Notes under the pieces: generated by a model
Databases searched by the model: none
Seen by the model: only the letters and a program-made list of their open reading frames with translations
What the model was told of the DNA's origin: nothing
Assembly (NCBI RefSeq): GCF_003428155.1
Contig: NZ_QLIR01000003.1
Coordinates: 1 to 32,000, forward strand
DNA length: 32,000 bases
Source: Fastidiosibacter lacustris
GTDB taxonomy: Bacteria; Pseudomonadota; Gammaproteobacteria; Francisellales; Francisellaceae
Direction of reading: 5' to 3'
Program-made: the position numbers and the translations under genes
Shown here: piece by piece, positions 7,148 to 22,830 of the stretch
How the letters are laid out: every line of letters starts with the position of its first letter
How positions within the stretch are numbered: the stretch's first letter is position 1

Positions 7148-7234
7148 ACAGCTAGACAATTAGGCGTGCAAATTATAAACTTTGACGCTGAATAAAACCT
7201 TGAAAGAAAATGATAAATTAAATAAGGAAAAACA

Positions 7235-8551
7235 ATGCAAGTATCTGTTGAGAGAAAAGAGGGCATTCACTGTGTATTGAATATTGAGTTGCCTGCTGGT
7301 GAAATTGAACAAGAAGTCTCTAAGCGCATTCAGCGCATTGCAAGAACAGCTAAAATTGATGGCTTTAGACCAGGTAAAGTGCCAACAGGTATGATTAAGA
7401 AAAAATATGGTGAACAAGTCCGTTTTGAAGTTTTAGGTGATTTATTACCCATCAAGTATTCAAAGGCATTAAAAGATGAAAAACTTGAAGCAGCTGGAGT
7501 TGAAATTGAAATCCTTCAAAACGAAGAAGGTAAGGCACTTAAATTTAATGTTAATATTGAGCTTTTCCCTGAAGTGATAATTAAAGATTTAGATAAAATT
7601 GAAGTGAAAAAACCAGTCGTTGAATTATCTGAAGTACAGACGGACAAGATGATTGAAAACTTACGTAAACAACTTGCAGTTTGGAATGAAGTTGATCGTG
7701 AAGTTAAAAAAGACGATCGAGTAATCATTGATTTTGTTGGTCGGGTTGATGGGCAAGTCTTTGAAGGAGGTTCTGTAAATGCTTATGAGATAGTTATTGG
7801 TTCAGGTCAAATGATTCCTGGATTTGAAGATGGCATTATTGGCATGAAAAAAGATGAAGATAAAACAATTCACGTTACTTTCCCTGAGGACTATCAAAAC
7901 GATGAACTTAAAAGTAAAGCAGCACAATTTAACGTCGTTGTTAAAAGTATAAAAGAGGCGGTTTTACCAGAAATCAATGATAAATTTGTTGAGCAGTTTG
8001 GTATTAAAGGTGGCGTTGAAGAATTTTACGCTGAAATTAAACAAAATATGGCACGAGAACTTAAAAATGCAATCCATAAGACAATCAAGCAGCAAGTGTT
8101 TGAACAATTGGTTAAACTTATTGAGTTTGAAGTACCAAAAGCCTTGATTCAACGTGAAATTGATCGTGCTAAGCAGGACTTAATTAAGCGCATAGATGGC
8201 AAAAAAGCGCAAGTTAAAGCTGAAAATTTATCGGATGATTTATTTAGAGATCGGGCTGAACACACTGTAAAGCTTGGTTTAATTTTCCAAGCAATCGTAC
8301 ATGAACAGCGGTTTGAAGCGGATCAAGCAAGCATTGATGAACTAATTGAAGAAATGGCATCTATTTATGAAGATGCGCAAGAAGTCCGTGATCACGTTAA
8401 AAATAACAAACAAGAATTTGATAATATCAAGAACGTTGTGATCGAGAACAAGTTGGTGGATTGGGTCGTTGAGCAAGGTAAATCAATCGAAAAAGAAGAA
8501 GATTTTTTTGATTTAATTCGAAATGCTTTACCTCAAGGACTCACGTTCTAA
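7235..8551 (+). CDS. tig: trigger factor
   Basis: MQVSVE... N-terminus, GFRPGKVP ribosome-binding signature, central FKBP-like PPIase block (GGSVNAYEIVIGSGQMIPGFEDGIIGMK). 438 aa, positioned upstream of clpPX-lon. Confidence 0.95.
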   Translation: MQVSVERKEGIHCVLNIELPAGEIEQEVSKRIQRIARTAKIDGFRPGKVPTGMIKKKYGEQVRFEVLGDLLPIKYSKALKDEKLEAAGVEIEILQNEEGKALKFNVNIELFPEVIIKDLDKIEVKKPVVELSEVQTDKMIENLRKQLAVWNEVDREVKKDDRVIIDFVGRVDGQVFEGGSVNAYEIVIGSGQMIPGFEDGIIGMKKDEDKTIHVTFPEDYQNDELKSKAAQFNVVVKSIKEAVLPEINDKFVEQFGIKGGVEEFYAEIKQNMARELKNAIHKTIKQQVFEQLVKLIEFEVPKALIQREIDRAKQDLIKRIDGKKAQVKAENLSDDLFRDRAEHTVKLGLIFQAIVHEQRFEADQASIDELIEEMASIYEDAQEVRDHVKNNKQEFDNIKNVVIENKLVDWVVEQGKSIEKEEDFFDLIRNALPQGLTF

Positions 8552-8626
8552 AGGTGATGTGGCTTCAATCATTCATTTTTGTGCCAGTAAAACACTGGTG
8601 AAAATGTTTTAATAAAATTAAACTAA

Positions 8627-8650
8627 GGCCACGTTTGTGGCTTTTTTATT
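8627..8650 (+). terminator. rho-independent terminator after tig
   Basis: Stem GCCAC (8628-8632) / GTGGC (8637-8641) with loop GTTT, followed by TTTTTT. Confidence 0.6.
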
Positions 8651-8665
8651 ATTAGTATTTTAGAG

Positions 8666-8687
8666 TGGTACAAATTTCTTTGTACCA
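8666..8687. promoter_or_regulatory. perfect 9-bp inverted repeat TGGTACAAA-N4-TTTGTACCA upstream of clpP (candidate operator)
   Basis: Arms at 8666-8674 and 8679-8687 are exact reverse complements. There is no trailing T-run. A TAAAAT -10-like hexamer lies at 8692-8697, about 40 bp upstream of the clpP start. Confidence 0.4.
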
Positions 8688-8726
8688 TAGATAAAATACG
8701 TAAAATATGGATGTAAGGTGAAAAAT

Positions 8727-9338
8727 ATGATTACAAATAATTTAGTACCAATTGTTGTAGAGCAAACTGCGCGTGGAGAGCGCTCATATGACATATACTC
8801 ACGTTTATTAAAGGAGCGTATTGTCTTTTTAAATGGCGAGGTTCACGATGTATCTGCAAATTTGGTAATTGCACAATTATTATTCTTAGAGTCTGAAAAC
8901 CCAGACAAAGATATTTATTTTTATATTAATTCACCAGGTGGTTCGGTCACGGCTGGAATGGGAATATATGATACTATGCAATTTATTAAACCAAATGTAA
9001 GTACGATTTGTATTGGGCTTGCTGCAAGTATGGGAGCCGTATTACTAGCTGCTGGCGAAAAAGGAAAGCGTTATAGTTTACCTCACTCCCAAATTATGAT
9101 CCATCAACCATTAGGTGGGTTTAGAGGTCAAGCTTCCGATGTTGAGATTCATGCTCGCAATATGCTTAGAATTAAAGAACGCTTAAATCAAGTACTAGCT
9201 CGCCATACAGGTAAAGATTATGAGCAGATGGTAAAAGATACAGATCGTGATAACTTCATGATGGCAGAAGAATCCAAAGAGTATGGTTTAATTGATCAAG
9301 TGATTGAATCACGATTAAGTATTCCTGGAACAAAATAA
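8727..9338 (+). CDS. clpP: ATP-dependent Clp protease proteolytic subunit
   Basis: Catalytic triad contexts GLAASMGA (Ser), MIHQP (His) and DTDRDNFM (Asp). The track starts at a GTG at 8718, but the ATG at 8727 is preceded by AAGGTG at 6-nt spacing and gives the MITNNLVP N-terminus. Confidence 0.95.
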
Positions 9339-10729: not shown

Positions 10730-13081
10730 ATGAATTTATATTCTAATGAAAAAATGGATATCACAGAGCTTGTCCCTGTTATTCCACTGCGTGACATTGT
10801 GGTATGTCCATATATGGCTGTTCCACTTTTTGTTGGACGGGAAAAATCGATTGCCGCAATTAGTGAAGCACATGCTACGCGCCAAAAGGTATTGCTTGTC
10901 ACCCAAAAAATAGATGATGTAGATAGCGTACATGTTAAAGATTTATATATGCTTGGTACTTATGCCAAGGTTTTACAGCTTATGAAGTTACCAGATGGTA
11001 CTTATAAGGTATTAGTAGAAGGCATAAGACGTGCTAAAGTTGAAAAATACTACGAAGATACACCCTTTATTGCTGCACAAATTCAATTAATAGAGACCAT
11101 AAATGATTTAAGTGAAGCTGATGAAAGTGGTTTTGTCCGAGCGTTACTTTCTAGTTTCAAGTCCCTTGCTGATATGGGTGGACAGGTACCAAAAGAAATA
11201 CTTTCCTCTATTTTGTCGGATAATCAGTTACCAAGAGTGATTGATACGATTCTTGCACAAGTGCAAGCATCAGTGGCTAAAAAGCAAGAAGTATTGGAAG
11301 CTCCAAATTTGCAATTAAGAGCTTCTTTGTTGCTGAAGCTTTTAGTTGCTGAAACAGAAATATTGGAGCTTGAGCGTAGTATCAAAGATCGCGTGAAGTC
11401 TCAGATTGAGCGTAATCAGCGTGAATATTACCTTAATGAGCAGATTAAAGCCATTTATAAGGAAATGGGTGATGTGGATGAAGCGCAGGAATTTGATCAG
11501 CTTAAAGAGAGGATTGAAGCGGCAAAAATGTCAAAAGAGGCTACAGAAAAAGCATTGTCTGAGATTAAAAAGTTAAAAACAATGCCGCAAGCTTCTGCTG
11601 AATCTTCAGTATCACGTAATTATATAGAAACTCTTGTTAGTCTGCCTTGGTCGAAGCGCACTAAAATCAAGAAAGATCTTAATCATGCACAAGAAATTCT
11701 AAATAGGGATCACTATGGTTTAGAAAAAGTCAAAGAACGAATCTTAGAGTATTTAGCAGTCCAACAAAGGATGCGTAAGTTAAAAGGACCGATTCTGTGT
11801 TTAGTAGGTCCTCCTGGTGTGGGTAAAACTTCGCTTGGTCAGTCGATTGCTAAAGCAACGGGTAGACGATATGTGCGTATGGCATTAGGTGGTGTTAAAG
11901 ATGAAGCCGAAATTCGTGGACATAGACGCACCTATATTGGTGCATTACCTGGTCAGATTATGCAGAAAATCAATAAGGCTCAAGTTAATAATCCATTATT
12001 TCTATTAGATGAAATAGATAAAATGTCGTCAGATTTTCGAGGTGATCCTGCTTCTGCCATGTTAGAAGTGTTAGATCCAGAACAAAACAACACTTTTAAT
12101 GATCATTATTTAGAAATTGATTATGATTTATCTGATGTAATGTTTGTAGCGACGGCTAATAGTCTTAACATTCCAGATGCGCTGCGTGATCGGATGGAAA
12201 TCATCTATCTGTCAGGTTATACCGAAGATGAGAAGCTAAACATTGCTACACGCTATCTTCTACCAAAAGCAATAAAAGATAATGGTTTAAAGCAGAATGA
12301 ACTTAGTGTATCGGCACAGGTTATTGAGGATATTATTCGCTATTATACGCGTGAGGCAGGTGTGCGGCGTTTGCAGCAAGAAATCAGTAAGCTGTGTCGC
12401 AAAGCGGTCAAACATATTTTGTCAACAAAAGATGGTAAAAAGGTATCGATTACCAGTAAGAATCTACATGAGTACCTTGGAGTACGCCGCTATGATTTTG
12501 GTTTGGCACAGAAAGAGAATAAAGTTGGACAAGTAACAGGTTTGGCTTGGACAGAGGTTGGTGGAGATTTATTGACAATTGAAGCTGTATCGACCGTGGG
12601 TAAAGGTAAGTTGAAAATAACAGGTAAGCTTGGTGACGTGATGCAAGAGTCAGTTCATGCTGCTTTTACTGTAGTTAGGACCAAAGCTCAAGAGTATGAT
12701 GTAGAAGAAGCTTTCTATGAGAAGCGTGATTTTCATATTCATGTACCAGAAGGTGCTACACCTAAAGATGGACCCAGTGCAGGTATTGCAATGTGCACAG
12801 CAATGTTATCTGCATTAACAGGTATTCCAGTAAGAAAAGATATTGCAATGACAGGTGAGATCACTTTACGTGGAGATGTGCTTGCAATTGGTGGTTTAAA
12901 GGAGAAACTACTAGCCGCACTTCGTGGTGGAATTAAGACTGTTTTAATTCCATTTGATAACAAAAAAGACTTACAAGAGATTCCACAGAACGTCAAAGAA
13001 GGTTTGGAGATTATCGCAGTAAAAACCATAGATGAAGTGTTAAAACGTGCACTTTTGCTAAAAAAAGGTCAAAAAACTTAA
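10730..13081 (+). CDS. lon: Lon protease
   Basis: Walker [10 protein letters not shown], catalytic Ser context PKDGPSAG, catalytic Lys context GGLKEK. 783 aa. Confidence 0.97.
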
Positions 13082-13109
13082 AAAAAGGTGTAAATAGCAA
13101 TAAACCGTG

Positions 13110-13138
13110 TTGACGTGTGAAGTGACGCTTGCTATAAC
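13110..13138 (+). promoter_or_regulatory. sigma-70 promoter for hupB
   Basis: TTGACG (13110-13115), a 17-nt spacer, then TATAAC (13133-13138), about 70 bp upstream of the hupB start. Confidence 0.6.
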
Positions 13139-13207
13139 TTAGTCGAGTTGGCTAGGCAAGCCTAGTTACCAGCATAATGTTATTCAACAACGAAAGAGGA
13201 AAATATC

Positions 13208-13480
13208 GTGAATAAGAGTGAACTAGTAAAAGCAATCGCAGAAAAAGCTGATGTAACCAAGGATGTTGCGCAGCGCACATTGGATGCAACGACTGAGGCG
13301 TTGACTGAGGCGTTGACATCAGGTCAAACAGTAACTTTGGTTGGTTTTGGTTCTTTTCAAGTACGTGAAAGAGCTGCGCGTGAAGGTCGTAATCCTAAAA
13401 CAGGTGAAAAAATGAAAATTAAAGCTTCTAAATCACCTACGTTTAAAGCGGGTAAATTATTAAAAGATGCAGTAAATTAA
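13208..13480 (+). CDS. hupB: DNA-binding protein HU-beta
   Basis: 90 aa. [20 protein letters not shown] and [12 protein letters not shown] are colinear with E. coli HupB without gaps. GTG start preceded by AGAGGA. Confidence 0.95.
13291..13317 (+). repeat. perfect 12-bp tandem repeat (GACTGAGGCGTT x2 plus GAC) inside hupB
   Basis: Read directly: 13291-13302 equals 13303-13314, followed by GAC. It encodes TEALTEALT. Confidence 0.9.
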
Positions 13481-13559
13481 TTACAGTTTTATATTAGGAT
13501 ATATGGCTAGTAAAGGTAGCTTTAAAAACTGTTTACAAAGCTTTCCTCTCAGTATCATA

Positions 13560-13592
13560 AAGGCATGCTAAAGCGCATGCCTTTTTCGTTTT
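13560..13592 (+). terminator. rho-independent terminator after hupB
   Basis: Stem AAGGCATGC (13560-13568) / GCATGCCTT (13575-13583) with a 6-nt loop, followed by TTTCGTTTT. Confidence 0.8.
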
Positions 13593-13653
13593 AACATGTT
13601 AAGATGTCGCCAATTGTTATTTAAGCTAAATGAAAATAGGGTAGTTTTTTCAT

Positions 13654-15387
13654 ATGTTGCAATTGATTAACGATAAGTTTAAAGGTTGGGTGACATGGAT
13701 TATTATTGTTGTCGTTAGTGCAGTTTTTATATTAACGGGGATTAGTTATTTTTTTGTCTCAAGTGGAGTATCTCCTCAAGCTGTTGCTAAAGTAGGTGAT
13801 ATTCAGGTTTCACAAAATACTTACCAGCAAATGCTTACACAGAACATGCAATCTGAACCTTCAGCTAATTCGAAAGCATTGCAGCAAAAAACGCTACAAC
13901 AGCTAGTGGATCAAGCGCTTTTACAACAAGATGCAACTGCTTCACATATTATGGTAACCGAGTCTGCTATTTCAGCTGCTATTTTTCAAAACCCAGCATT
14001 TATTGAGAATGGTCAATACTCAGCTAAACGGTTTGATGAGATCGCTAAGCTTTATGGTGGAGCTGTGCCTATCAAATCAATGATTGCTAATAGCCTTTTG
14101 ACGTCAAGTATAGTAAGTCCAATTATGCAAACCCAGTTTGTGCTGAAAGATGAAATTCAAGCAGTGAGTGCGTTAATGGGACAAAAGCGAGAAATAAAAT
14201 ATTATAGTTTTGCAGCTAAAGATTTTAGTAAAGACGTCCAAATAAGTGATGAAGCATTACAGGCTTATTACCATGAGAATAGTACAGCTTACCAAAAGTC
14301 AAAAGAAGCCATCGTTTCATATGTGGAGCTTACATCAAAGGACTTTATAAGTAATGAACCGATTACTACAGAGGAAATTGCATCTTATTATGAAGCAAAC
14401 AAAGATGCACTCTTTACTCAGGAATTAAGATCAGGTGAAATCATAACCATTAAAAAAGATGCAAAAAATAAAGAAATCGTTGCTCAAGCATTGAAAACAA
14501 ATATGCTTTTAACGGCAGATCAGCAGAAAGACGTGACAATTGAAGCTATTAAGCCATTGTCTCAAGATCAAGCTTCCACTTATGCGCAATTTGCATTATT
14601 TAATTTAACGATGAGTTCATCTGTGAAAGAAACTTCAGATAATGAGTTTGTCAAGCTTACAAATATTGATATACCTAAAGAAATGACTTTAGAACAAGCT
14701 ACACCTATTATCAAAAGGATTTTAACCAATCGAGCAGCACTTCAAAAATTCAATGAGGTTTTAACGAGTATCAATAACAACAGCTTTGAACAAGTGGTTA
14801 AAACAAATAACTTAAAGGTTAGTACAACGAAGCCATTTAATCTGCAAACAACAGGTAATCAAGTGGAAGGGAATGCTAAATTACAAGAAGCTGTTCTAGG
14901 GTATAACAAAACCCAAGGTTTTATTAGTCAAGGTCAAACCGAAGGAATACTATATAAAGTTGATAAAATCACGCCTCAACGTACTTTGAGCTTTGCTGAA
15001 GTCAAAGACAAAGTCAAAAAAGCCTATATTGATCAGCAAGCATTAAAGCTGGCACAGCAAAAGGCGGAAGCTTTTTCACAAATACTTAATAAAGAGAAAA
15101 TAGATAGTAGTAAAGAAAAAGCAAAAATAGAGAAAATTTCACGTAACGATTTTGGTTTAGATCAGGCATTGAAAACAGCAATCTTCAGTGATGAGTTAAA
15201 TCAATATAAAACTATCCAAAATGGTGATGCCTATTGGGTATATGAAGTCACCAAAGTCATTCCAGGTGATAATGAGTTATCAATTCAAATGGTACAAAAT
15301 AATTATGTAACCATTGAGTTAAATGACTACCTTACTGCACTTAAAAATCAATATCCAGTTGAGATTAATCATCAGCTGATTGAATAA
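13654..15387 (+). CDS. ppiD: periplasmic chaperone / peptidyl-prolyl isomerase PpiD
   Basis: N-terminal membrane anchor (WVTWIIIVVVSAVFILTGISYFF), a long SurA/PpiD-like periplasmic region, and the conserved position after hupB. 577 aa. Confidence 0.8.
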   Translation: MLQLINDKFKGWVTWIIIVVVSAVFILTGISYFFVSSGVSPQAVAKVGDIQVSQNTYQQMLTQNMQSEPSANSKALQQKTLQQLVDQALLQQDATASHIMVTESAISAAIFQNPAFIENGQYSAKRFDEIAKLYGGAVPIKSMIANSLLTSSIVSPIMQTQFVLKDEIQAVSALMGQKREIKYYSFAAKDFSKDVQISDEALQAYYHENSTAYQKSKEAIVSYVELTSKDFISNEPITTEEIASYYEANKDALFTQELRSGEIITIKKDAKNKEIVAQALKTNMLLTADQQKDVTIEAIKPLSQDQASTYAQFALFNLTMSSSVKETSDNEFVKLTNIDIPKEMTLEQATPIIKRILTNRAALQKFNEVLTSINNNSFEQVVKTNNLKVSTTKPFNLQTTGNQVEGNAKLQEAVLGYNKTQGFISQGQTEGILYKVDKITPQRTLSFAEVKDKVKKAYIDQQALKLAQQKAEAFSQILNKEKIDSSKEKAKIEKISRNDFGLDQALKTAIFSDELNQYKTIQNGDAYWVYEVTKVIPGDNELSIQMVQNNYVTIELNDYLTALKNQYPVEINHQLIE

Positions 15388-15389
15388 AT

Positions 15390-16343
15390 ATGTCTTTATT
15401 ACAAAAACAAGTCTTTGCTTTGGCTGGTCCCACTGCTTCTGGAAAAACAAATCTTGCGATCAAACTTGCAAAAGAAATTGATGCAGAGATCATTAGCGTT
15501 GATTCAACGCTTGTTTATAAGGGATTAGATATAGGTTCCGCAAAGCCGACAATTAAAGAGATGCAAGGTATTTACCATCATTTGATTGATATTATTGATC
15601 CTTGGTTAAGTTATTCAGTCAATGATTTTTTAATCGATGTACAATCTTTGATTATTGATATTCAGGCACGAAATAAAAATGTATTGTTGGTGGGTGGGAC
15701 AATGATGTATTTTAAAGCTTTAGAAGAAGGAATTTCTATTTTGCCAGAAGCAAATGAGGCAACTCGTGCACAGCTAAAAGAAAAAACCTTAACCTACTGG
15801 TATGATTTTTTACAACATGCAGATCCTGTAACAGCGGTACGTTTAAATCCAGCTGATCGCCAGCGTATAGAACGAGCAGTAGAAATTATTTTGCTAACAA
15901 ATAAGCCTTATTCTATAGTCATACAGCAAAACAAAAAACAAGGTGGCTTAGGACAGAGACTCACCATATGCGCTTTAGTTCCACAAGATAGAAAAAAGCT
16001 ACATGATGATATTGATAAACGTTTCCACAAAATGCTTGATGCGGGTTTTTTGCACGAAGTAAAACAGTTAAAAGAAAACCCAAAAATAAACGAGAATTTG
16101 CCTGCTATGCGCAGTGTGGGTTATAGGCAAGCATGGCAATATTTAGAAGGGCAGTATGATTATCAAGCTTTTATTGATAAAGGCATTGCAGCAACAAGAC
16201 AACTTGCTAAACGTCAGCTTACATGGATTCGCAATTGGCCTTATCAGCTTAAAGCAATCGATACAAGTTTAATGGATAAAGAAAAACTTGAGCAGATAAT
16301 AAGTTACCTATACTCCAAATGTCCGACAAAAACGTATCCATGA
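15390..16343 (+). CDS. miaA: tRNA dimethylallyltransferase
   Basis: P-loop GPTASGKT, VDSTLVYKGLDIGSAKP, GGTMMYFKAL. 317 aa. The start is 2 nt after the ppiD stop. Confidence 0.95.
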   Translation: MSLLQKQVFALAGPTASGKTNLAIKLAKEIDAEIISVDSTLVYKGLDIGSAKPTIKEMQGIYHHLIDIIDPWLSYSVNDFLIDVQSLIIDIQARNKNVLLVGGTMMYFKALEEGISILPEANEATRAQLKEKTLTYWYDFLQHADPVTAVRLNPADRQRIERAVEIILLTNKPYSIVIQQNKKQGGLGQRLTICALVPQDRKKLHDDIDKRFHKMLDAGFLHEVKQLKENPKINENLPAMRSVGYRQAWQYLEGQYDYQAFIDKGIAATRQLAKRQLTWIRNWPYQLKAIDTSLMDKEKLEQIISYLYSKCPTKTYP

Positions 16344-16646
16344 CTTTGAATGGGTTCGAGTACATTGGCTTGTTTATTATTGATTCTGGTGCATAGGCAG
16401 TTATATAAGTTTTATAACTGAAAAGGCTATTAAGCTATAACTGCAAAATGATTTGCGATTTGGTGTGTATAGAAATTTTAAGTATAACCTAAAGTTTTTT
16501 AAGTAACTGTAATGTCAAATAAAAAAGGCTTGTGTTTAAGTCAAGTCTTTGTACAAAAATATAGGAGAAAAAAGCACCACATTTAATTTAAAAAATGGGT
16601 AAAATAACCAAATATTTTATTGTTTTTAATAATAAAGGAGATGGTT

Positions 16647-18782
16647 GTGTCTTTGACAGAAGCAGTACCAGAAATTGAATTACAAGTAGCGTCACTAGAT
16701 ATTTGGGATAGTAAATATCGCCTTAAAACACGTTTAGGTCAACCAGTTGACAAAGACATTGATGATACTTATCAGCGTGTAGCTAAGGCATTATCAGAAG
16801 TTGAGAAAACATCAACGCTTCAACAAAAGCATTATGAGGAATTTCTTTGGGCACTAAGAAATGGAGCAATTCCAGCAGGTAGAATCATCTCAAATGCAGG
16901 TGCACTTGAACATAAACCTGCAACTTCAACGATCAATTGTACAGTATCAGGCACTATTCATGATTCTATGGATGATATTTTACAGAAAGTACATGAGTCT
17001 GGCTTAACCTTGAAAGCAGGCTGTGGCATTGGTTATGAGTTTTCAACACTACGTCCTAAAGGTGGGTTTGTTGCAGGAGCAGGTGCTCATACGTCAGGTC
17101 CGTTATCTTTTATGGATATCTATGACAAAATGTGTTTTACCATAGCCTCAGCAGGTGGTAGGCGTGGTGCACAAATGGGAACATTTGATGTGGGACATCC
17201 AGATATATTTGACTTTATACGTGCTAAGCGTGAAAACGGACGTTTGCGTCAATTTAATTTATCTTTGCTGATTACCAGAGATTTCATGTATGCGGTTGAA
17301 AACGATCAGGTGTGGCATTTGGCATTTCCAATGACTGAGGCTGAGCGAAAAGCACATCAAATTGACTTAAATGATTCAACAAAAGTGTTGTGGCGTGAGT
17401 GGTCGATTAGGGATGACTATATTACCGATGATTCAGGGCTTGTGGCATGTAAAATTTATAATACTGTCAAGGCTCGTAGATTATGGGATATGATTATGTC
17501 TTCCACCTATGACTATGCTGAACCTGGATTTATTTTGATTGATAAGGTCAACGAAGAAAATAATAACTGGTTCTGTGAAACGATTCGTGCTACTAATCCA
17601 TGTGGCGAACAACCACTGCCACCTTATGGTTCATGCCTTTTAGGTTCAATTAATTTGACTAAATTTGTCGAGCATCCATTTACCAATCAAGCAAGTTTTA
17701 GTTGGGAAAGGTATCGTAAAGTGGTGCGTATCTTCACACGTATGCTTGATAACGTGGTTGAGATTAATGGCTTACCATTGCAAGAACAGCGTAATGAAAT
17801 TGAATCAAAACGTCGTCATGGCATGGGATTTTTAGGTCTAGGCTCAACGTTGAGTATGCTTAAGATGAAATATGGCGAAAAAGCTTCAATTGACTTTACA
17901 GAAGAAGTTGCAAGGCAGATGGCGCTAGAAGGTTGGCGTGAAGGTGTAGCATTGGCTAAAGAAAAAGGGAGTGCCCCTGTTTTAGAGAAAGATTATATCA
18001 TAACGGAAGAATTTTTACGTTTACGTCCCGAAATAACTGCTGATGGAATCAAAGTGGGTGATTTGGTAAAAGGACGAGTTTTACATGCAAGATACAGTCG
18101 TTATATGCAGCGCATTGCTAAAGAAGATATTTCAATCATTGATGCAATTTGTGAGCATGGTTGTCGATTTACTCACCACACCTCAATTGCTCCAACAGGT
18201 ACAATCTCGTTATCACTTGCCAATAATGTCAGCAATGGCATTGAACCAAGTTTTGCGCACCACTATTCGCGTAATGTGATAAGAGCAGGTAAAAAATCAA
18301 AAGAAAAAGTGGATGTATTTTCATATGAGCTATTAGCTTATCGTCATTTTGTCAATCAGAATGCAATACCGCATGCTAAAGATGAGGTCAATAAGTTACC
18401 AGATTACTTTATTGCAGCGGATAATGTGACGCCTAAACAACATGTTGATATTCAAGCGGCAGCTCAAAAATGGGTAGATTCGAGTATTTCTAAAACAGCA
18501 AATGTGCCAACAGACTTTCCATTTGCTGATTTTAAAGATATCTACCTTTATGCCTATCATCAGGGGCTTAAAGGCTGTACGACGTTCAGATTTAACCCTG
18601 AAGTTTTCCAAGGCGTGCTGGTTAAAGATGAGGATTTGGAAAAAACTATGTATCGCTTTACCCTCGAGGATGGCTCTGTGCTTGAGTTAAAAGGTAATGA
18701 AATGATTGAATACGATGGCGAACAGCACAGCGCTGCAAATCTCTATGATGCTTTGAAGGAGGGATATTATGGGAAATTCTAG
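16647..18782 (+). CDS. nrdJa: class II (adenosylcobalamin-dependent) ribonucleotide reductase, large N-terminal subunit NrdJa
   Basis: Active-site block TNPCGEQPLPPYGSC, SGLTLKAGCGIGYEFS, GGRRGAQMG. The track ORF starts at a TTG at 16620, but the GTG at 16647 follows AAGGAG (16635-16640) at 6-nt spacing. It ends ...LYDALKEGYYGKF without the Cys-rich C-terminal region, which is encoded separately (see nrdJb). Confidence 0.9.
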   Translation: MSLTEAVPEIELQVASLDIWDSKYRLKTRLGQPVDKDIDDTYQRVAKALSEVEKTSTLQQKHYEEFLWALRNGAIPAGRIISNAGALEHKPATSTINCTVSGTIHDSMDDILQKVHESGLTLKAGCGIGYEFSTLRPKGGFVAGAGAHTSGPLSFMDIYDKMCFTIASAGGRRGAQMGTFDVGHPDIFDFIRAKRENGRLRQFNLSLLITRDFMYAVENDQVWHLAFPMTEAERKAHQIDLNDSTKVLWREWSIRDDYITDDSGLVACKIYNTVKARRLWDMIMSSTYDYAEPGFILIDKVNEENNNWFCETIRATNPCGEQPLPPYGSCLLGSINLTKFVEHPFTNQASFSWERYRKVVRIFTRMLDNVVEINGLPLQEQRNEIESKRRHGMGFLGLGSTLSMLKMKYGEKASIDFTEEVARQMALEGWREGVALAKEKGSAPVLEKDYIITEEFLRLRPEITADGIKVGDLVKGRVLHARYSRYMQRIAKEDISIIDAICEHGCRFTHHTSIAPTGTISLSLANNVSNGIEPSFAHHYSRNVIRAGKKSKEKVDVFSYELLAYRHFVNQNAIPHAKDEVNKLPDYFIAADNVTPKQHVDIQAAAQKWVDSSISKTANVPTDFPFADFKDIYLYAYHQGLKGCTTFRFNPEVFQGVLVKDEDLEKTMYRFTLEDGSVLELKGNEMIEYDGEQHSAANLYDALKEGYYGKF

Positions 18783-18793
18783 GGAGCACAAAA

Positions 18794-19036
18794 GTGGGTA
18801 TTAATCTATTACCTGAATATGTTCGCAGGTACTACGAAATCTATGAATATAAACATGCTTGTACGATTCTCAAAGAGGACTTCCCAAATGAGTGGGCAGA
18901 TATAGTTTCGTTGCTAGAAGCCTTTAGGTTAAAGAAGAGCTGGATTATTCAATCTGGAGGGCGTAAGTCAAAGGTTGCTGAGTATATTGACAACTATTTG
19001 TACGCCATGGGGTGGGTTGAAAAGCAATTTGTTTGA
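18794..19036 (+). pseudogene. 80-aa N-terminal fragment of a BglII/BamHI/BstYI-like type II restriction endonuclease (catalytic core missing)
   Basis: YEIYEYKHACTILKEDFPNEWADIVSLLEAF...KVAEYIDNYLYAMGWVEKQF follows the N-terminal pattern I recall for BglII and BstYI (Y-x-H-x4-L ... W-x-E/D-I ... L ... GW-x-E). In those enzymes the catalytic D...E-x-Q/E block comes after this point, whereas this ORF stops at 19036 and the methyltransferase begins 13 nt later. The family assignment is from memory, not a search. Confidence 0.4.
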
Positions 19037-19049
19037 AGAGGATATTTAG

Positions 19050-19670
19050 GTGGGTGTTAAAGAAGATTTTATGAACGAACTCAAGGGGCGAAAGTTTAAA
19101 ACCATTTTAGCCGACCCTCCCTGGCAGTTTCACAATCGAACAGGTAAGGTGGCGCCAGAGCATAAAAGATTAACTCGCTATCCGACTTTGGTTTTGGATG
19201 AAATTAAGAAACTTCCTGTCGTAGAGATCGCGGATGAGACTGCACATTTGTATCTATGGGTACCCAATGCGTTGCTGGCTGAGGGACTTGAAGTCATGCA
19301 AGCCTGGGGATTTACTTATAAAACTAATTTGGTGTGGTATAAGGTGCGCAAAGATGGTGGTCCTGATCGTAGGGGCGTCGGTTTTTATTTTAGAAATGTC
19401 ACGGAAGTAATATTGTTTGGTACGCGTGGAAAAAATACACGGACTTTGCCTCCTGGGAGAAGTCAGGAAAATATTGTGTTATCAAGAAAACGCGAGCATA
19501 GCAGGAAACCTGATGAACAATATGATTTGATTGAGTCCTGCAGTGCAGGTCCTTATTTAGAGTTATTTGCCAGAGGGAGCCGAGAGAATTGGCATGCCTG
19601 GGGAAATCAAGTAGAAAATTACAGCCCTGATTGGGAGACCTATGCCAATCATTCACAGGTGTCAAAATAA
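19050..19670 (+). CDS. MT-A70 family DNA N6-adenine methyltransferase (DPPW)
   Basis: ILADPPWQF catalytic motif near the N-terminus, then HLYLWVPN, AWGFTYKTNLVWYK, FYFRNVTEVILFGTRG, EHSRKPDE and ELFARG. This is the typical block order of about 200-aa MT-A70 enzymes. The start could be the GTG at 19050 or the ATG at 19071. Confidence 0.85.
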   Translation: MGVKEDFMNELKGRKFKTILADPPWQFHNRTGKVAPEHKRLTRYPTLVLDEIKKLPVVEIADETAHLYLWVPNALLAEGLEVMQAWGFTYKTNLVWYKVRKDGGPDRRGVGFYFRNVTEVILFGTRGKNTRTLPPGRSQENIVLSRKREHSRKPDEQYDLIESCSAGPYLELFARGSRENWHAWGNQVENYSPDWETYANHSQVSK

Positions 19671-19685
19671 CTTTTGGAGCATAAA

Positions 19686-20378
19686 ATGGTCATGAAAATA
19701 GAAAAGAAAATTATTGAATTTAAAATCGTGAAACCTGAGGAAAAACTAACAAATGTTACAGTAAAGTCATTAAAAAAAGAAAAATTACATCAGCAGATGA
19801 GTGAAAATATCAAACGCCCTGAATCATTGATAGGGGAAACTTATAAGATCAAACCACCTAATGCAGAACATGCCTTATATGTCACAATCAATGATATTAT
19901 ATTGAATGAAGGTACTGAACATGAAGTACGCAGACCTTTTGAGATTTTCCTAAGTTCTAAGAATATAGAGCATTTTCAATGGACTATTGCGTTGACACTG
20001 ATTATTTCAGCTGTCTTTCGAAAAGGGGGCGACATTACTTTCCTAGTTGAGGAATTACGCTCGGTATTTGATCCAAATGGTGGATATTTAAAGCGTGGTG
20101 GTAAATATATTCCGTCCCTAGTATCAGAAATTGGCGATGTCATTGAAAAACATTTAAAGAAAATTAACATGTTACCAGCGGGTGATTTGGATGAAAGTCA
20201 AAAGCTTTTTATTGCCGCTAAACGTGAGGAATTGGATAAGCGACAGCAGCCAAGTAATGATGCAACAACTAATTTTCCACCTGAATCTCAACTGTGTACT
20301 AAGTGCAATACTAAGGCAATGATAAATATGGATAACTGTTTGACTTGTCTAAATTGTGGCTACTCTAAGTGTGGTTAG
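19686..20378 (+). CDS. nrdJb: class II ribonucleotide reductase small C-terminal subunit NrdJb
   Basis: ETYKIKPP...ALYVTINDI...RPFEIFLSSKN..HFQW..ALTLIISAVFRKGGD..FLVEEL..VFDPNGGY matches the conserved C-terminal region of long class II RNRs. The Cys-rich tail is CTKCNT...CLTCLNCGYSKCG. The ATG at 19686 follows GGAG (19676-19679), while the track starts at a TTG at 19674. Confidence 0.85.
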   Translation: MVMKIEKKIIEFKIVKPEEKLTNVTVKSLKKEKLHQQMSENIKRPESLIGETYKIKPPNAEHALYVTINDIILNEGTEHEVRRPFEIFLSSKNIEHFQWTIALTLIISAVFRKGGDITFLVEELRSVFDPNGGYLKRGGKYIPSLVSEIGDVIEKHLKKINMLPAGDLDESQKLFIAAKREELDKRQQPSNDATTNFPPESQLCTKCNTKAMINMDNCLTCLNCGYSKCG

Positions 20379-20381
20379 ACA

Positions 20382-20876
20382 ATGCTTTACGCTTTTTTCT
20401 ATCTTGCCTTTTGCACTTATCTTGGCTTATTTCTCAAAAATAAAATTGCCATCACTTTTTTAGCAGTTTCAGTACTTAGTTGGTTTATTGTCAGAATTCC
20501 TGAAATCAATGCTGATTTATGGTATCGCTTTGTGCTGATGAGTTTGTCATATGCCACAGAGTTAGCTGTTTTACTTTATTTTTTGCCAAAAAAGGTTATT
20601 GAACTTACAAGACCTAATATACAAAAAAGTTTAATTATAGCCGCTGTTTTGCTGGTAATGTTTAGCTTAGCTGTTTTTGTTAGTAGCATTTTGATTCCTT
20701 ATATGCAACAGACTCTCATGCAACAAGCAAATGTAGACATTAACGGATTATTAAGCCAAATTGGTTGGTTGTATCGCTTTGGTTCATTCGCTGGCTGGTT
20801 AAGCTTTTTTACTTATCTATACCTTTGGATTGGCTTGACAAGGTTTAATGTAAAAATTCCAGTAAGCGTTATTTAG
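20382..20876 (+). CDS. hypothetical polytopic membrane protein (about 5 TM)
   Basis: 164 aa, starting 3 nt after the nrdJb stop. About five hydrophobic helices. I recognise no family. Confidence 0.5.
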   Translation: MLYAFFYLAFCTYLGLFLKNKIAITFLAVSVLSWFIVRIPEINADLWYRFVLMSLSYATELAVLLYFLPKKVIELTRPNIQKSLIIAAVLLVMFSLAVFVSSILIPYMQQTLMQQANVDINGLLSQIGWLYRFGSFAGWLSFFTYLYLWIGLTRFNVKIPVSVI

Positions 20877-20973
20877 CATTTCCTACTAAAAAACATTGAC
20901 CTATTATCGACTGTTATCAAATCGTACTATAAAACACCATGAAAACAAAATTTGAGTTCCTGACTATTTGGGC

Positions 20974-21001
20974 TTACATGGTTTTTACATGTTGATATAA
21001 T
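20974..21001 (+). promoter_or_regulatory. sigma-70 promoter (extended -10) for cydDC
   Basis: TTACAT (20974-20979), a 16-nt spacer ending in TGA, then TATAAT (20996-21001), 35 bp upstream of the cydD ATG. Confidence 0.55.
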
Positions 21002-21036
21002 GCCGCCATGAATTGTACGCTTTATAGATTGAATAG

Positions 21037-22830
21037 ATGTCAAATACTGCGCTTGAGCGTAAAAGTGCGCGCTTGTGGTTAAAATCAAAAGCAAAACCAG
21101 CAAAGCGATGGATCCAATTGACTGTTTTTGTGAGTTTTACAAGTGGTTTATTGTTAATTGGTCAGTTGTATTTATTAGCACACATTTGCTATGCCGCTTT
21201 TATCGAGCACTTATCGCAAACTCAACTTATTACTTATTTTATTGGAATTGCCATGATCGTATTGATTCGGGCAGGCTTATCATGGTTAAAAGAAATAGTA
21301 AGCTTTCAGGCAGCAGCATGTGTTAAACAGCAATTAAGAGAAGATATCATCTTGCATATTAATCGCTTGGGACCCATAAAGGCATCTACAATGAGTAGTG
21401 GTGAGCTCGTAAGCTCGGCAATGGAACAAGTAGAGGGAATGAATAATTTCTTAACTCATTTTTTACCACAGGTGACACTAGCTGGACTTATGCCTTTTGC
21501 AATTTTAATATTCGTCTTTCCACAAAGCATTGTTTGTGGATTGATTTTACTTATTTGTGCGCCACTTATTCCTTTGTTTATGATGTTGGTGGGATTGGGT
21601 GCTGAGAGCGAAAATCAGAAACATTTTAAAACTTTAGGACGGATAAGCTCAGTTTTTTTAGATACATTACAAGGCTTGGCAACGATTAGGTTGTTTAACC
21701 GGAGTAAGCAGCATGCTAAAGTCATCTTTAATTACTCAGATGAATATTGTATAAAAACAATGAAAGTACTAAGAATGGCTTTTTTATCTTCGGCAGTACT
21801 AGAGGTTTTCTCAGCTGCATCTATTGCACTTGTTGCGATTTATTTGGGCATGGGATTTATCAATAGTGCAAATACACATACCATTTGGTGGGTGTTTGAT
21901 AATATGACTTTACAAGGTGGACTGTTTATTTTGCTATTAGCACCTGAGTTTTTCCTACCATTGCGTGAGTTAAGTACACATTACCATGCTAAAGCCGAAG
22001 CAGTAGGTGCTGCTCTTGAGTTGCAAAAAATATTTGATTTACAGGAGGATAAAGGAGGCGTTCAACTTCCTTTTACTGAAAACATTCAATCCATTTCATT
22101 TAATCAATTAAGCTATAGTTATCATGGTAAAAGCCAATCGGCATTAAATAATATTTCATTAACAATAACAAAAGGACAAAAGATAGCAGTTATAGGTGCA
22201 AGTGGTGCGGGTAAAACAACTGTGCTTAATTTATTGATGAAATTTATACATGAAAAAAATAATAAACTCCTTATTAATGGATATACGCCTTTAAATGACA
22301 TAAACGAAAAAGATTGGCTTAAGAAAATCAGTTGGCTTGGTCAACATGCAGGTTTATTTAAAGGTAGTATAAGGTATAACTTATTGCTTGCTAAAGAACA
22401 TGCAACAGATGATGAATTATGGCATGCGTTGACGTTGGCAGCTTTAGATAAGGAAGTCAAAACATTTGCTGATGGATTGGATACGGAGCTAGGTGAACAA
22501 AACTTAGGTTTATCAGGTGGTCAAGCCCAGCGTTTAGCATTAGCACGAGCTTACCTTAAACCATGTGAATTACTGTTATTAGATGAGCCAACAGCAAGTT
22601 TAGATGAAAAAAACGAAACACTTATCATGGAAAGTCTAATTCGAAATTGGACGGATAAAACGGTGATCATGCTCACCCATCGTTTGGCTTTTTTGTCTAA
22701 AATGGATCACATTGTGGTCATGAATGAAGGTAAGATCGTCCAGCAAGGCAGCTTAGAAAGCTTATTAGCAGAAAAGTCAGGTTTTTTTAATGCATTATAT
22801 GCGTATCATATTGATAGAGAGGTGCATTAA
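21037..22830 (+). CDS. cydD: thiol reductant (cysteine/glutathione) ABC exporter subunit CydD
   Basis: Strong block identity with E. coli CydD as recalled: APLIPLFMMLVGLGA, LRMAFLSSAVLEVF..SIALVAIYLG, APEFFLPLRELSTHYHAKAEAVGAA. Walker A GASGAGKTT, signature LSGGQAQR, Walker B LLLLDEPT. Confidence 0.9.
   Translation: MSNTALERKSARLWLKSKAKPAKRWIQLTVFVSFTSGLLLIGQLYLLAHICYAAFIEHLSQTQLITYFIGIAMIVLIRAGLSWLKEIVSFQAAACVKQQLREDIILHINRLGPIKASTMSSGELVSSAMEQVEGMNNFLTHFLPQVTLAGLMPFAILIFVFPQSIVCGLILLICAPLIPLFMMLVGLGAESENQKHFKTLGRISSVFLDTLQGLATIRLFNRSKQHAKVIFNYSDEYCIKTMKVLRMAFLSSAVLEVFSAASIALVAIYLGMGFINSANTHTIWWVFDNMTLQGGLFILLLAPEFFLPLRELSTHYHAKAEAVGAALELQKIFDLQEDKGGVQLPFTENIQSISFNQLSYSYHGKSQSALNNISLTITKGQKIAVIGASGAGKTTVLNLLMKFIHEKNNKLLINGYTPLNDINEKDWLKKISWLGQHAGLFKGSIRYNLLLAKEHATDDELWHALTLAALDKEVKTFADGLDTELGEQNLGLSGGQAQRLALARAYLKPCELLLLDEPTASLDEKNETLIMESLIRNWTDKTVIMLTHRLAFLSKMDHIVVMNEGKIVQQGSLESLLAEKSGFFNALYAYHIDREVH

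Follow-up and report, generated by a model that had tools for sequence, protein, structure and literature searches.

Why should a restriction endonuclease fragment and a DNA methyltransferase gene lie between the two genes that encode one enzyme? Class II (B12-dependent) ribonucleotide reductase (RNR) is split in almost all Gammaproteobacteria that have a class II enzyme. We explored this question in a stretch of 32,000 nucleotides (nt) from Fastidiosibacter lacustris (assembly GCF_003428155.1, contig NZ_QLIR01000003.1, positions 1 to 32,000 of the forward strand), called the window below. In the window, the RNR genes nrdJa and nrdJb are separated by two open reading frames (ORFs) of 80 and 206 amino acids (aa), which we call R' and M. 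Our analysis suggests that the nrdJa/nrdJb spacer is probably a slot for accessory cassettes, and that in this genome it holds a disarmed type II restriction-modification (R-M) system.

Crona et al. (2015, PMC4520616) reported that nrdJa and nrdJb of Pseudomonas aeruginosa form a single operon, that the split is at a specific site, and that both subunits are needed in vivo. They mention nothing between the two genes, and they call the possible advantages of the split "less obvious". An earlier reading of the window (the original prediction) described four co-oriented ORFs with gaps of 11, 13 and 15 nt, and an R-M module exactly at the nrdJa/nrdJb junction.

The cassette between nrdJa and nrdJb

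Both parts of this earlier reading were confirmed. The ORF list places nrdJa, R', M and nrdJb on the + strand with these spacers when nrdJb is read from the ATG at 19686, and profile matches and coordinates (Table 1) put the R-M module at the junction. The four proteins are each 100% identical to NCBI entries of F. lacustris. The features of a split class II RNR are all present, that is, the NrdJa barrel (TIGR02504), the TSCPD module of NrdJb (PF12637) and the same orientation of the two genes. The likely start of nrdJa is the ATG at 16641, while the mechanically called ORF opens at TTG 16620; the 713-aa form of NrdJa is that of NCBI (WP_116963427.1). NrdJb bears this name at NCBI (WP_116963429.1), and its alignment to PRK08665, a model of fused NrdJ, covers positions 585-759 in the C-terminal part.

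The 80-aa ORF R' matches PF09195 (Endonuc-BglII) at 31.8 bits (cut-off 26), only over profile positions 1-58 of 163. It is annotated as WP_116963428.1, and its 90%-identity cluster includes an intact 196-aa protein of Caedibacter, WP_100551193.1, named "BglII/BstYI family type II restriction endonuclease". The call of a BglII-like endonuclease fragment is therefore borne out by both the profile and the intact relative. Over codons 2-79, R' and the intact gene (R) of Caedibacter taeniospiralis (locus L251) share 97.0% nt identity, with a synonymous divergence (dS) of 0.094 and a ratio of nonsynonymous to synonymous divergence (dN/dS) of 0.17; 3 of the 78 residues differ. The intact R of Cysteiniphilum sp. 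QT6929 (L001) matches PF09195 with 151.6 bits over profile positions 1-163 of 163.

The alignment with Caedibacter locates the missing part. The homology of the window runs through L251 7967-8237 and continues at 8564-8672. The intact gene of Caedibacter contains a pair of imperfect direct repeats of 12 nt, GAAAAACAATTT at 8226-8237 and GAAAAGTAATTT at 8561-8572, which are 335 nt apart; the window has the single joint GAAAAGCAATTT. The deletion of 335 nt (3n+2) shifts the frame, and a TGA stop follows two codons on, at 19034-19036. Thus, R' consists of endonuclease residues 1-79 and one frameshifted residue, and codons 80-190, or 57% of the endonuclease length, are missing. The old R frame still reads LFEEDI* at 19029..19049, and its TAG abuts the GTG start of M. 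R' is the product of a recent repeat-mediated loss of these 335 nt.

Residues D98, E107 and E109 are invariant in 27 family members, and all of them are within the lost part. They fit the PD-(D/E)XK pattern and are likely the catalytic residues. The complete catalytic core is absent from R', while the Caedibacter and Cysteiniphilum cassettes carry intact R. Because the D...ExE core is deleted, R' should not be able to cut DNA. The AlphaFold model of intact R has low confidence (pLDDT 58.6, pTM 0.65), and its N-terminal 80 residues are helical and the best predicted. A PDB sequence search with R gave no significant match. The only consistent PDB matches of the model are three BstYI structures (1SDO, 1VRR and 2P0J); they are weak (E 0.12-0.24, TM 0.31-0.34), and we took them only as consistent with the Pfam call.

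M matches PF05063 (MT-A70) over its full length (113 bits, positions 1-172 of 172), has the DPPW motif and scores 291 bits against PADLOC MTase_II, so the original prediction of an intact MT-A70 methyltransferase was correct. Its N-terminus from the GTG start is conserved among homologs. It is 96% identical in aa and 95.0% in nt to M of Caedibacter (dS 0.169, dN/dS 0.14). By these values M is an intact gene, under purifying selection and now orphan, and it is predicted to methylate DNA as an orphan methyltransferase.

BglII, BamHI and BstYI are paired with N4-cytosine methyltransferases. The cassette is like the BglII/BstYI type II systems in that R and a DNA methyltransferase gene are arranged head-to-tail, the layout of classical type IIP systems, and in that PF09195 is full-length in the intact relatives. 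It differs from them in that the partner is an MT-A70 (DPPW) adenine methyltransferase and R of the window has lost the D98/E107/E109 block.

Both families are widespread. M has more than 8,000 homologs, and the best 120 of them are 74-100% identical to M and come from many phyla; the best 120 homologs of the 196-aa R are 70-77% identical and all 195-207 aa long. We examined the neighbourhood of M-family genes at 160 other loci (80 metagenome and 80 viral). At most of them a BglII-like gene adjoins M, either upstream and co-oriented or downstream and convergent, with 27%-81% identity to the Cysteiniphilum R; about 27 loci that have sufficient flank are without R. Automatic sorting of R into intact and decayed was too crude for divergent R, and was used only for the presence or absence of a neighbour. 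No nrdJ gene is adjacent to M at any of the 160 loci. Thus, the placement at nrdJ is a feature of the Fastidiosibacteraceae and not of the R-M family.

A general association of this R-M family with nrdJ was rejected on the same count. One metagenome locus (L130 1-5594, Ga0299912_10000008) comes from an unrelated bacterium, and there class I nrdA-nrdB, an M78/IrrE-like peptidase gene, a 276-aa BglII-like R and an M-family gene are co-oriented; class I nrdAB lies 1-3 kb upstream of the R-M genes, about what chance gives. At two other loci (L002 4407-4992 and L003 185-770) a decayed R, in pieces of 76 and 131 aa or uncalled, adjoins an intact M, so R loss with M retention recurs in the family. 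The MT-A70 family is unusually conserved (74-80% across phyla) despite diverged BglII-like partners in two orientations, which hints at one methylation specificity common to diverged BglII-like nucleases.

Exchange between genera at a variable junction

We calculated the guanine plus cytosine content at third codon positions (GC3) for the ORFs of the window. It was 0.420 in R' (z = 7.2) and 0.391 in M (z = 5.8), and 0.270 +/- 0.021 in the 22 other ORFs, with a maximum of 0.303. In Caedibacter, GC3 is 0.37-0.38 in the cassette and 0.37-0.43 in host genes. Thus, the cassette is foreign in F. lacustris and native in Caedibacter. The original prediction had counted GC by hand and called the methyltransferase gene visibly richer in GC. 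Its counts were accurate (46.7, 46.7 and 48.3% in three lines of M, 25.0% in the first nrdJb line and 38.3% in an nrdJa line), and the contrast is strongest at third codon positions.

Divergence from Caedibacter is also very different between the cassette and its flanks. The nrdJa genes share 78.3% nt identity (dS 2.15, dN/dS 0.04), and the nrdJb genes share 75.7% (dS saturated, dN/dS not estimable). The last ~300 nt of nrdJa, however, share 88.7% identity with Caedibacter, whereas the 600 nt before them share 75.5%; their dS is ~0.70, compared with >2 upstream. GC3 of this part is 0.37-0.39 in both F. lacustris strains, compared with 0.27 in the gene body. Sliding identity and segment analysis gave a high-identity tract at about 18500-19570. 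Its youngest part is ~18790-19570, and an older layer (dS 0.5-0.7) is formed by the ends of nrdJa (~300 nt) and of M (99 nt). These 99 nt are more diverged from Caedibacter than the rest of M (dS 0.50), and mark the right edge of the most recent exchange. These values are most simply read as the result of several rounds of homologous recombination, in which a Caedibacter-like donor took part and crossovers fell in the conserved 3' end of nrdJa and either at the right end of the cassette or inside it. A plasmid or phage vehicle was also considered and rejected: matches there have only 65-71% nt identity and are restricted to M, and no near-identical cassette was found.

The same junction was then compared in close relatives. 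Caedibacter has nrdJa, 11 nt, R (196 aa), M (206 aa), 15 nt and nrdJb, and Cysteiniphilum has nrdJa, 10 nt, R (196 aa) and M, with nrdJb at another locus. Between Cysteiniphilum and Fastidiosibacter the cassettes are saturated at synonymous sites (26-45% identity at 4-fold sites), and vertical and independent origin are indistinguishable for this pair. Other junctions are empty, as in Fangia (31 nt), Facilibium (22 nt), L090 (28 nt), two Francisellaceae metagenome-assembled genomes (MAGs; 12-27 nt) and Thiotrichales 19S9-11. The original prediction had proposed to look for such empty junctions in the closest genomes, and they exist.

Another comparison is with GCA_024208055.1 (L253), a further assembly of F. 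lacustris with the same neighbouring genes. Identity to the window is 99.76% over 13001-18775 and 99.86% over 19674-22500, but between them the window has 898 nt (18776-19673, R' and M) and L253 has 1,971 unrelated nt. The left breakpoint is in the last two or three codons of nrdJa and the right one is 12 nt before the ATG of nrdJb. Mismatches in the left flank (17 in total) are concentrated near the junction, with 8 in the last 325 nt of nrdJa and 9 in the previous 5,460 nt. The slot of L253 carries a gene (7210-9018) for a 602-aa ATPase-Toprim protein of OLD/PARIS/PtuA-like type, which matches PADLOC ATPase-Toprim_I-B (57.8 bits), also PtuA, AriA and AbiLi, and Pfam AAA_21 (51.7 bits). With a GC3 of 0.28 this gene is native-like. 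A degenerate copy of the nrdJb ribosome-binding site (RBS), GGCATAAAAG, immediately follows the nrdJa stop of L253. The two strains show one feature of a defence or accessory-gene hotspot, namely non-homologous cargo between conserved flanks in closely related genomes.

The original prediction knew of no description of this arrangement. In a partial literature search we found no paper on cargo in the nrdJ junction, and to this extent the claim stands; the arrangement itself is not unique to this genome, since Caedibacter has nrdJa-R-M-nrdJb and Cysteiniphilum nrdJa-R-M. The opposing case named by the original prediction was that relatives would carry the same ORFs as native operon members. This case applies in part, as the layout is common to Caedibacter and Cysteiniphilum. 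However, since the cassette has a foreign composition in F. lacustris, is missing from other relatives and gives way to another gene in the sister strain, it is accessory and not a native operon member.

In Cysteiniphilum (L085/L086 6001-6693, L001 6625-8520) the nrdJ operon is broken at the M/nrdJb boundary, and a 609-aa PNP_UDP/abhydrolase gene follows nrdJa-R-M. There nrdJb and its 163-aa partner stand behind huge proteins without a Pfam family, one of 1,018 aa and a 1,918-aa gene product (two genes in L086).

The split site across Proteobacteria

We scanned genomes for the C-terminus of NrdJa and obtained at least 80 loci from Gamma- and Zetaproteobacteria, of which at least 74 carry both genes. 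NrdJa ends in ...LKEGYYGKF* in six genera. The split is at the same residue in all 80 loci listed, and tblastn alignments reach query residue 720. The window has the same split site, domain content and gene order as P. aeruginosa NrdJa/NrdJb; it differs in the extra DNA, which is also found in 46 of the 74 loci listed, where the junction is longer than 70 nt. Junctions have 70 nt or fewer in 28 of these 74 loci, 71-300 nt in 17, 301-1,200 nt in 25 and more than 1,200 nt in 4. The statement that the two genes are normally adjacent was thus too strong. The idea that the R-M module itself created the split must be given up, since the split residue is the same in the six genera and in all 80 loci listed, most of them without R-M. 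On this comparison the nrdJ split is older than the cassette and widespread.

Known selfish and defence genes were found in several junctions. HigB toxins are at L022 and L026 (92 and 98 bits), with an IS200-like gene also at L022; HicA (70 bits) with a DUF1902 (HicB-like) partner is at L013, and MqsR/MqsA at L082. DUF4160/DUF2442 is at L048, and at L080 by sequence similarity only. Not all cargo is of this kind: L030 has a dienelactone hydrolase gene, along with genes for a C70 protease and its GrlR-like partner. Among the loci listed, these finds suggest that junction cargo may be enriched in selfish genes.

Other junctions hold lineage-specific material. In Lysobacterales (L018, L047, L059, L068, L073 and L084) a conserved Ala/Lys-rich low-complexity protein of 100-250 aa (MSNGNG...) is encoded between nrdJa and nrdJb, and similar inserts of ~820-1,170 nt are found at L027, L043, L054, L057, L071, L074 and L077. 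The one member tested, that of L018, gave a weak, sub-threshold match to the HC2 histone-H1-like family. The protein looks like a lineage-specific resident of the slot. In Zetaproteobacteria (L009, L012, L017, L021, L024, L037, L040, L052, L056 and L058) a conserved peptide-like element, ...W[AP]E[LM][KR]FPP[IVL]NLW..., is readable in junctions of 170-470 nt. Either a short conserved ORF or an element conserved at the RNA or DNA level could account for it. In Methylovulum miyakonense HT12 (L011 10699-12609) the gene after nrdJa encodes a protein of 636 aa that matches no family above threshold, and the 10 kb downstream contain no nrdJb. This may be another broken nrdJ operon or a very large insert.

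The tail of NrdJa (~60 residues) and the head of NrdJb (~33 residues) have no counterpart in fused NrdJ models, and no Pfam family or PDB chain homologous to the NrdJa C-terminal tail or the NrdJb N-terminus was found. A bolder and rather unlikely view would take the split site as an ancient, still active landing pad. The split would have been made by a selfish insertion, as by mobE in nrdA of phage Aeh1, and the tail and head would be relics that hold the halves together. The conserved coding flanks would then be the homology arms that move R-M, toxin-antitoxin (TA) and other defence cassettes between genera.

Expression, competing explanations and neighbouring genes

A conserved motif, AGTCAAGTC-N8/9-(A/G)AAAATAT, is located 103-143 nt upstream of nrdJa in six of seven Fastidiosibacteraceae/Francisellaceae loci (L251, L001, L087, L005, L253 and L255). 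It is likely the control region of the nrdJ operon, and no copy of it was found in front of nrdJb. Each ORF has a Shine-Dalgarno sequence, namely GGAG at 18783-18786 for R', AGAGGA before the GTG of M, and GGAG at 19676-19679 for nrdJb. An internal nrdJb promoter was rejected: the sole promoter-like match (19659-19687) overlaps the nrdJb start codon and therefore cannot serve this gene. The region has 5 terminator-like hairpins, compared with 3.5 +/- 1.7 in shuffled sequence, which is chance level. Because each ORF has its own RBS, and no candidate terminator or internal promoter is convincing, transcription of R', M and nrdJb most likely starts at the nrdJa promoter and reads through.

The history that probably explains these results can be described as follows. 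A cassette of a BglII/BstYI-family R gene followed by an MT-A70 M gene is resident at exactly this position in the Caedibacter/Cysteiniphilum lineage. It would have entered the F. lacustris lineage by recombination, with the highly conserved nrdJa 3' end and the first part of nrdJb as homology arms. At least two layers of exchange may be distinguished, an older one that included the last ~300 nt of nrdJa and a recent one that re-homogenised R and most of M. In this strain the deletion between the 12-nt imperfect repeats disarmed R, which is a conceivable safe way of disarming an R-M system, and M was kept as an orphan. A position between two enzyme halves may offer a cassette expression, a shield from sloppy deletion, and conserved flanks as homology arms. 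The slot is polymorphic, with the OLD/PARIS-like ATPase-Toprim gene in the sister strain, and in other Proteobacteria this junction is empty or filled with TA pairs and other accessory genes.

A site-specific mobile element, inserted independently in each lineage with the nrdJb RBS as target-site duplication, is an unlikely alternative, although several observations speak for it. The insertion point is equal in three genera, and the cassette is flanked by the direct repeat GGAGCA(C/T)AAAA. The left spacer GGAGCACAAAA equals positions 19676-19686 (GGAGCATAAAA) at 10 of 11 positions, which was reached by 23 of 20,000 shuffles (p about 0.001), and the unrelated L253 cassette also has a copy, GCATAAAA, at its left edge. 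R-M insertions with target duplications that span start or stop sites have been described (Furuta et al. 2010, PMC2853133). However, both repeats are ribosome-binding sites, and the likeness could be due to target duplication or to functional convergence. The cassette consists only of R and M, without integrase, transposase or inverted repeats. The raised identity and foreign GC3 reach ~300 nt into nrdJa, as homologous recombination predicts; the diverged last 99 nt of M imply that an M was resident before the latest exchange, and none of the 160 other M-family loci adjoins nrdJ.

If R and M were instead old, vertically inherited members of the nrdJ operon, M might be domesticated, for example as an epigenetic regulator tied to deoxynucleoside triphosphate supply, and R would be decaying. 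The layout common to Caedibacter, Cysteiniphilum and Fastidiosibacter agrees with this, as do the 82.5% identity to Cysteiniphilum M, which is near that of NrdJa (87%) and NrdJb (85%), the purifying selection on M, and the decay of R with M kept at L002 and L003. It is nevertheless very unlikely: dS to Caedibacter is 0.09-0.17 in the cassette and >2 in the flanking genes, GC3 is 6-7 standard deviations above host genes, the 99.8%-identical sister strain has another gene in place of the cassette, and the junction is empty in Fangia, Facilibium and others. For F. lacustris, vertical inheritance seems largely refuted by these contrasts in divergence and composition. R' could also be a retained small protein with a new role, as a regulator or dominant-negative partner. 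Its ORF is intact with a good RBS, only 3 of 78 residues differ from Caedibacter R (dN/dS 0.17), and it covers the best-predicted helical part of the model. But the low divergence is explained by recency (dS 0.09), a frameshifted end two codons past a repeat-mediated deletion is the typical signature of an accident, and among the best 120 R homologs, all of 195-207 aa, there are no stand-alone N-terminal fragments. We consider a new role highly improbable.

Some points weigh against an accessory slot filled by exchange and holding a disarmed system. The truncation of R is known from one assembly only. The direction of transfer is suggested by composition only, and as C. taeniospiralis itself lives as an obligate endosymbiont, a free-living relative is the more likely donor. 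A neighbour-joining tree of 121 M proteins places the three Fastidiosibacteraceae alleles as each other's nearest neighbours, yet only 40 of 100 bootstraps recover them as a clade; one insertion in an ancestor of Caedibacter and Cysteiniphilum is therefore parsimonious, though unproven. Some filled junctions are without selfish or defence genes, such as those with the Lysobacterales low-complexity protein or the L030 dienelactone hydrolase. As for co-transcription, which we infer from sequence only, two weak terminator-like hairpins with a T-run lie inside M (19537-19549, -8.7 kcal/mol; 19360-19376, -7.3 kcal/mol). In addition, nrdJb of Cysteiniphilum is at another locus, so its expression presumably does not require an upstream nrdJa.

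Furuta, Abe and Kobayashi (2010, PMC2853133) described R-M insertion into operon-like structures, target duplications over start and stop sites, and allelic substitution at R-M loci. The nrdJ cassette is similar in that an R-M pair without mobility genes lies between co-oriented genes, with start-spanning repeats and an unrelated substitute in a sister strain; it differs in that the host operon encodes two halves of one enzyme and that exchange between genera would use the enzyme-coding flanks. Like defence islands and hotspots, the slot has conserved flanks, strain-variable cargo (R-M or ATPase-Toprim) and TA modules at the site in other lineages. Unlike them, it measures 12-31 nt when empty, lies within an operon, usually holds one small cassette, and has no tRNA or integrase.

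The closest precedent is nrdA of Aeromonas phage Aeh1, which Friedrich et al. in 2007 reportedly presented as genes-in-pieces. In this gene the split is due to mobE, which encodes a homing endonuclease (Crona et al. 2011, PMC3045599). In both cases the large-subunit gene of a reductase exists as two pieces, co-transcribed in the phage and probably so here, a selfish nuclease gene separates them, and the enzyme assembles nonetheless. In Aeh1, however, the split was made by the insertion, whereas the nrdJ split is older than the cassette and usually empty, and its nuclease is a restriction enzyme that comes with a cognate methyltransferase. The window is not a case of homing-endonuclease genes-in-pieces, because R is a BglII/BstYI-type endonuclease and most relatives have the split but nothing in the junction.

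R-M mobility into operons, defence hotspots and orphan methyltransferases are thus known already, and what is new is their variant at the nrdJ split site. The site would be a recurrently occupied, strain-variable slot for R-M, TA and defence genes, and not a silent 20-nt spacer. This would give a concrete and testable link between the RNR split and the traffic of selfish elements, by which the origin of the split becomes testable. The locus may serve as an example of a defence cassette within the operon of one enzyme, where imprecise loss would harm host genes; of spread across genera by recombination in conserved coding flanks without a mobility gene; and of an R-M system disarmed through R loss with an orphan methyltransferase left. 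The two F. lacustris strains (R'-M and ATPase-Toprim) are a ready pair for a study of the methylation motif and of the effect of cargo on nrdJb expression.

Table 1. Features of the nrdJ locus in the window
Feature	Position	Strand	Basis
Conserved motif, candidate promoter/operator	16539..16566	+	about 105 nt upstream of nrdJa
nrdJa, catalytic subunit of split class II RNR	16641..18782	+	TIGR02504 568 bits, PF02867 425 bits
Last ~300 nt of nrdJa, probable recombinant tract that travelled with junction cargo	18480..18782	+	GC3, identity, dS
Left spacer, RBS for R'	18783..18793	+	near copy of nrdJb RBS-spacer
R', remnant of 196-aa BglII/BstYI-family type II restriction endonuclease	18794..19036	+	PF09195
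Deletion joint	19019..19030	+	alignment to intact Caedibacter gene
Surviving 3' end of original R, out of frame	19029..19049	+	translation and alignment to L001, L251
M, intact MT-A70-family (DPPW) type II N6-adenine DNA methyltransferase	19050..19670	+	PF05063, PADLOC MTase_II
Right spacer with native nrdJb RBS, GGAG 19676-19679	19671..19685	+	L253 homology restarts at 19674
nrdJb, TSCPD/Cys-rich subunit, 230 aa from ATG	19686..20378	+	PF12637 27 bits; mechanical ORF from 19674
Predicted membrane protein of 164 aa, likely last operon gene	20382..20876	+	3 nt after nrdJb; hydrophobic

Searches of the window found no tRNA, and no cobalamin riboswitch or other RNA family at gathering thresholds. 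The 164-aa ORF after nrdJb had no match in a Pfam profile search. Fangia, L090, Cysteiniphilum and L253 have an ORF of 160-166 aa after nrdJb, and Caedibacter has none there. The 163-aa ORF of Cysteiniphilum is 70.6% identical in aa to that of the window, and the Fangia and L090 ORFs were matched by size only. The 164-aa ORF is possibly an unrecognised member of the nrdJ operon.

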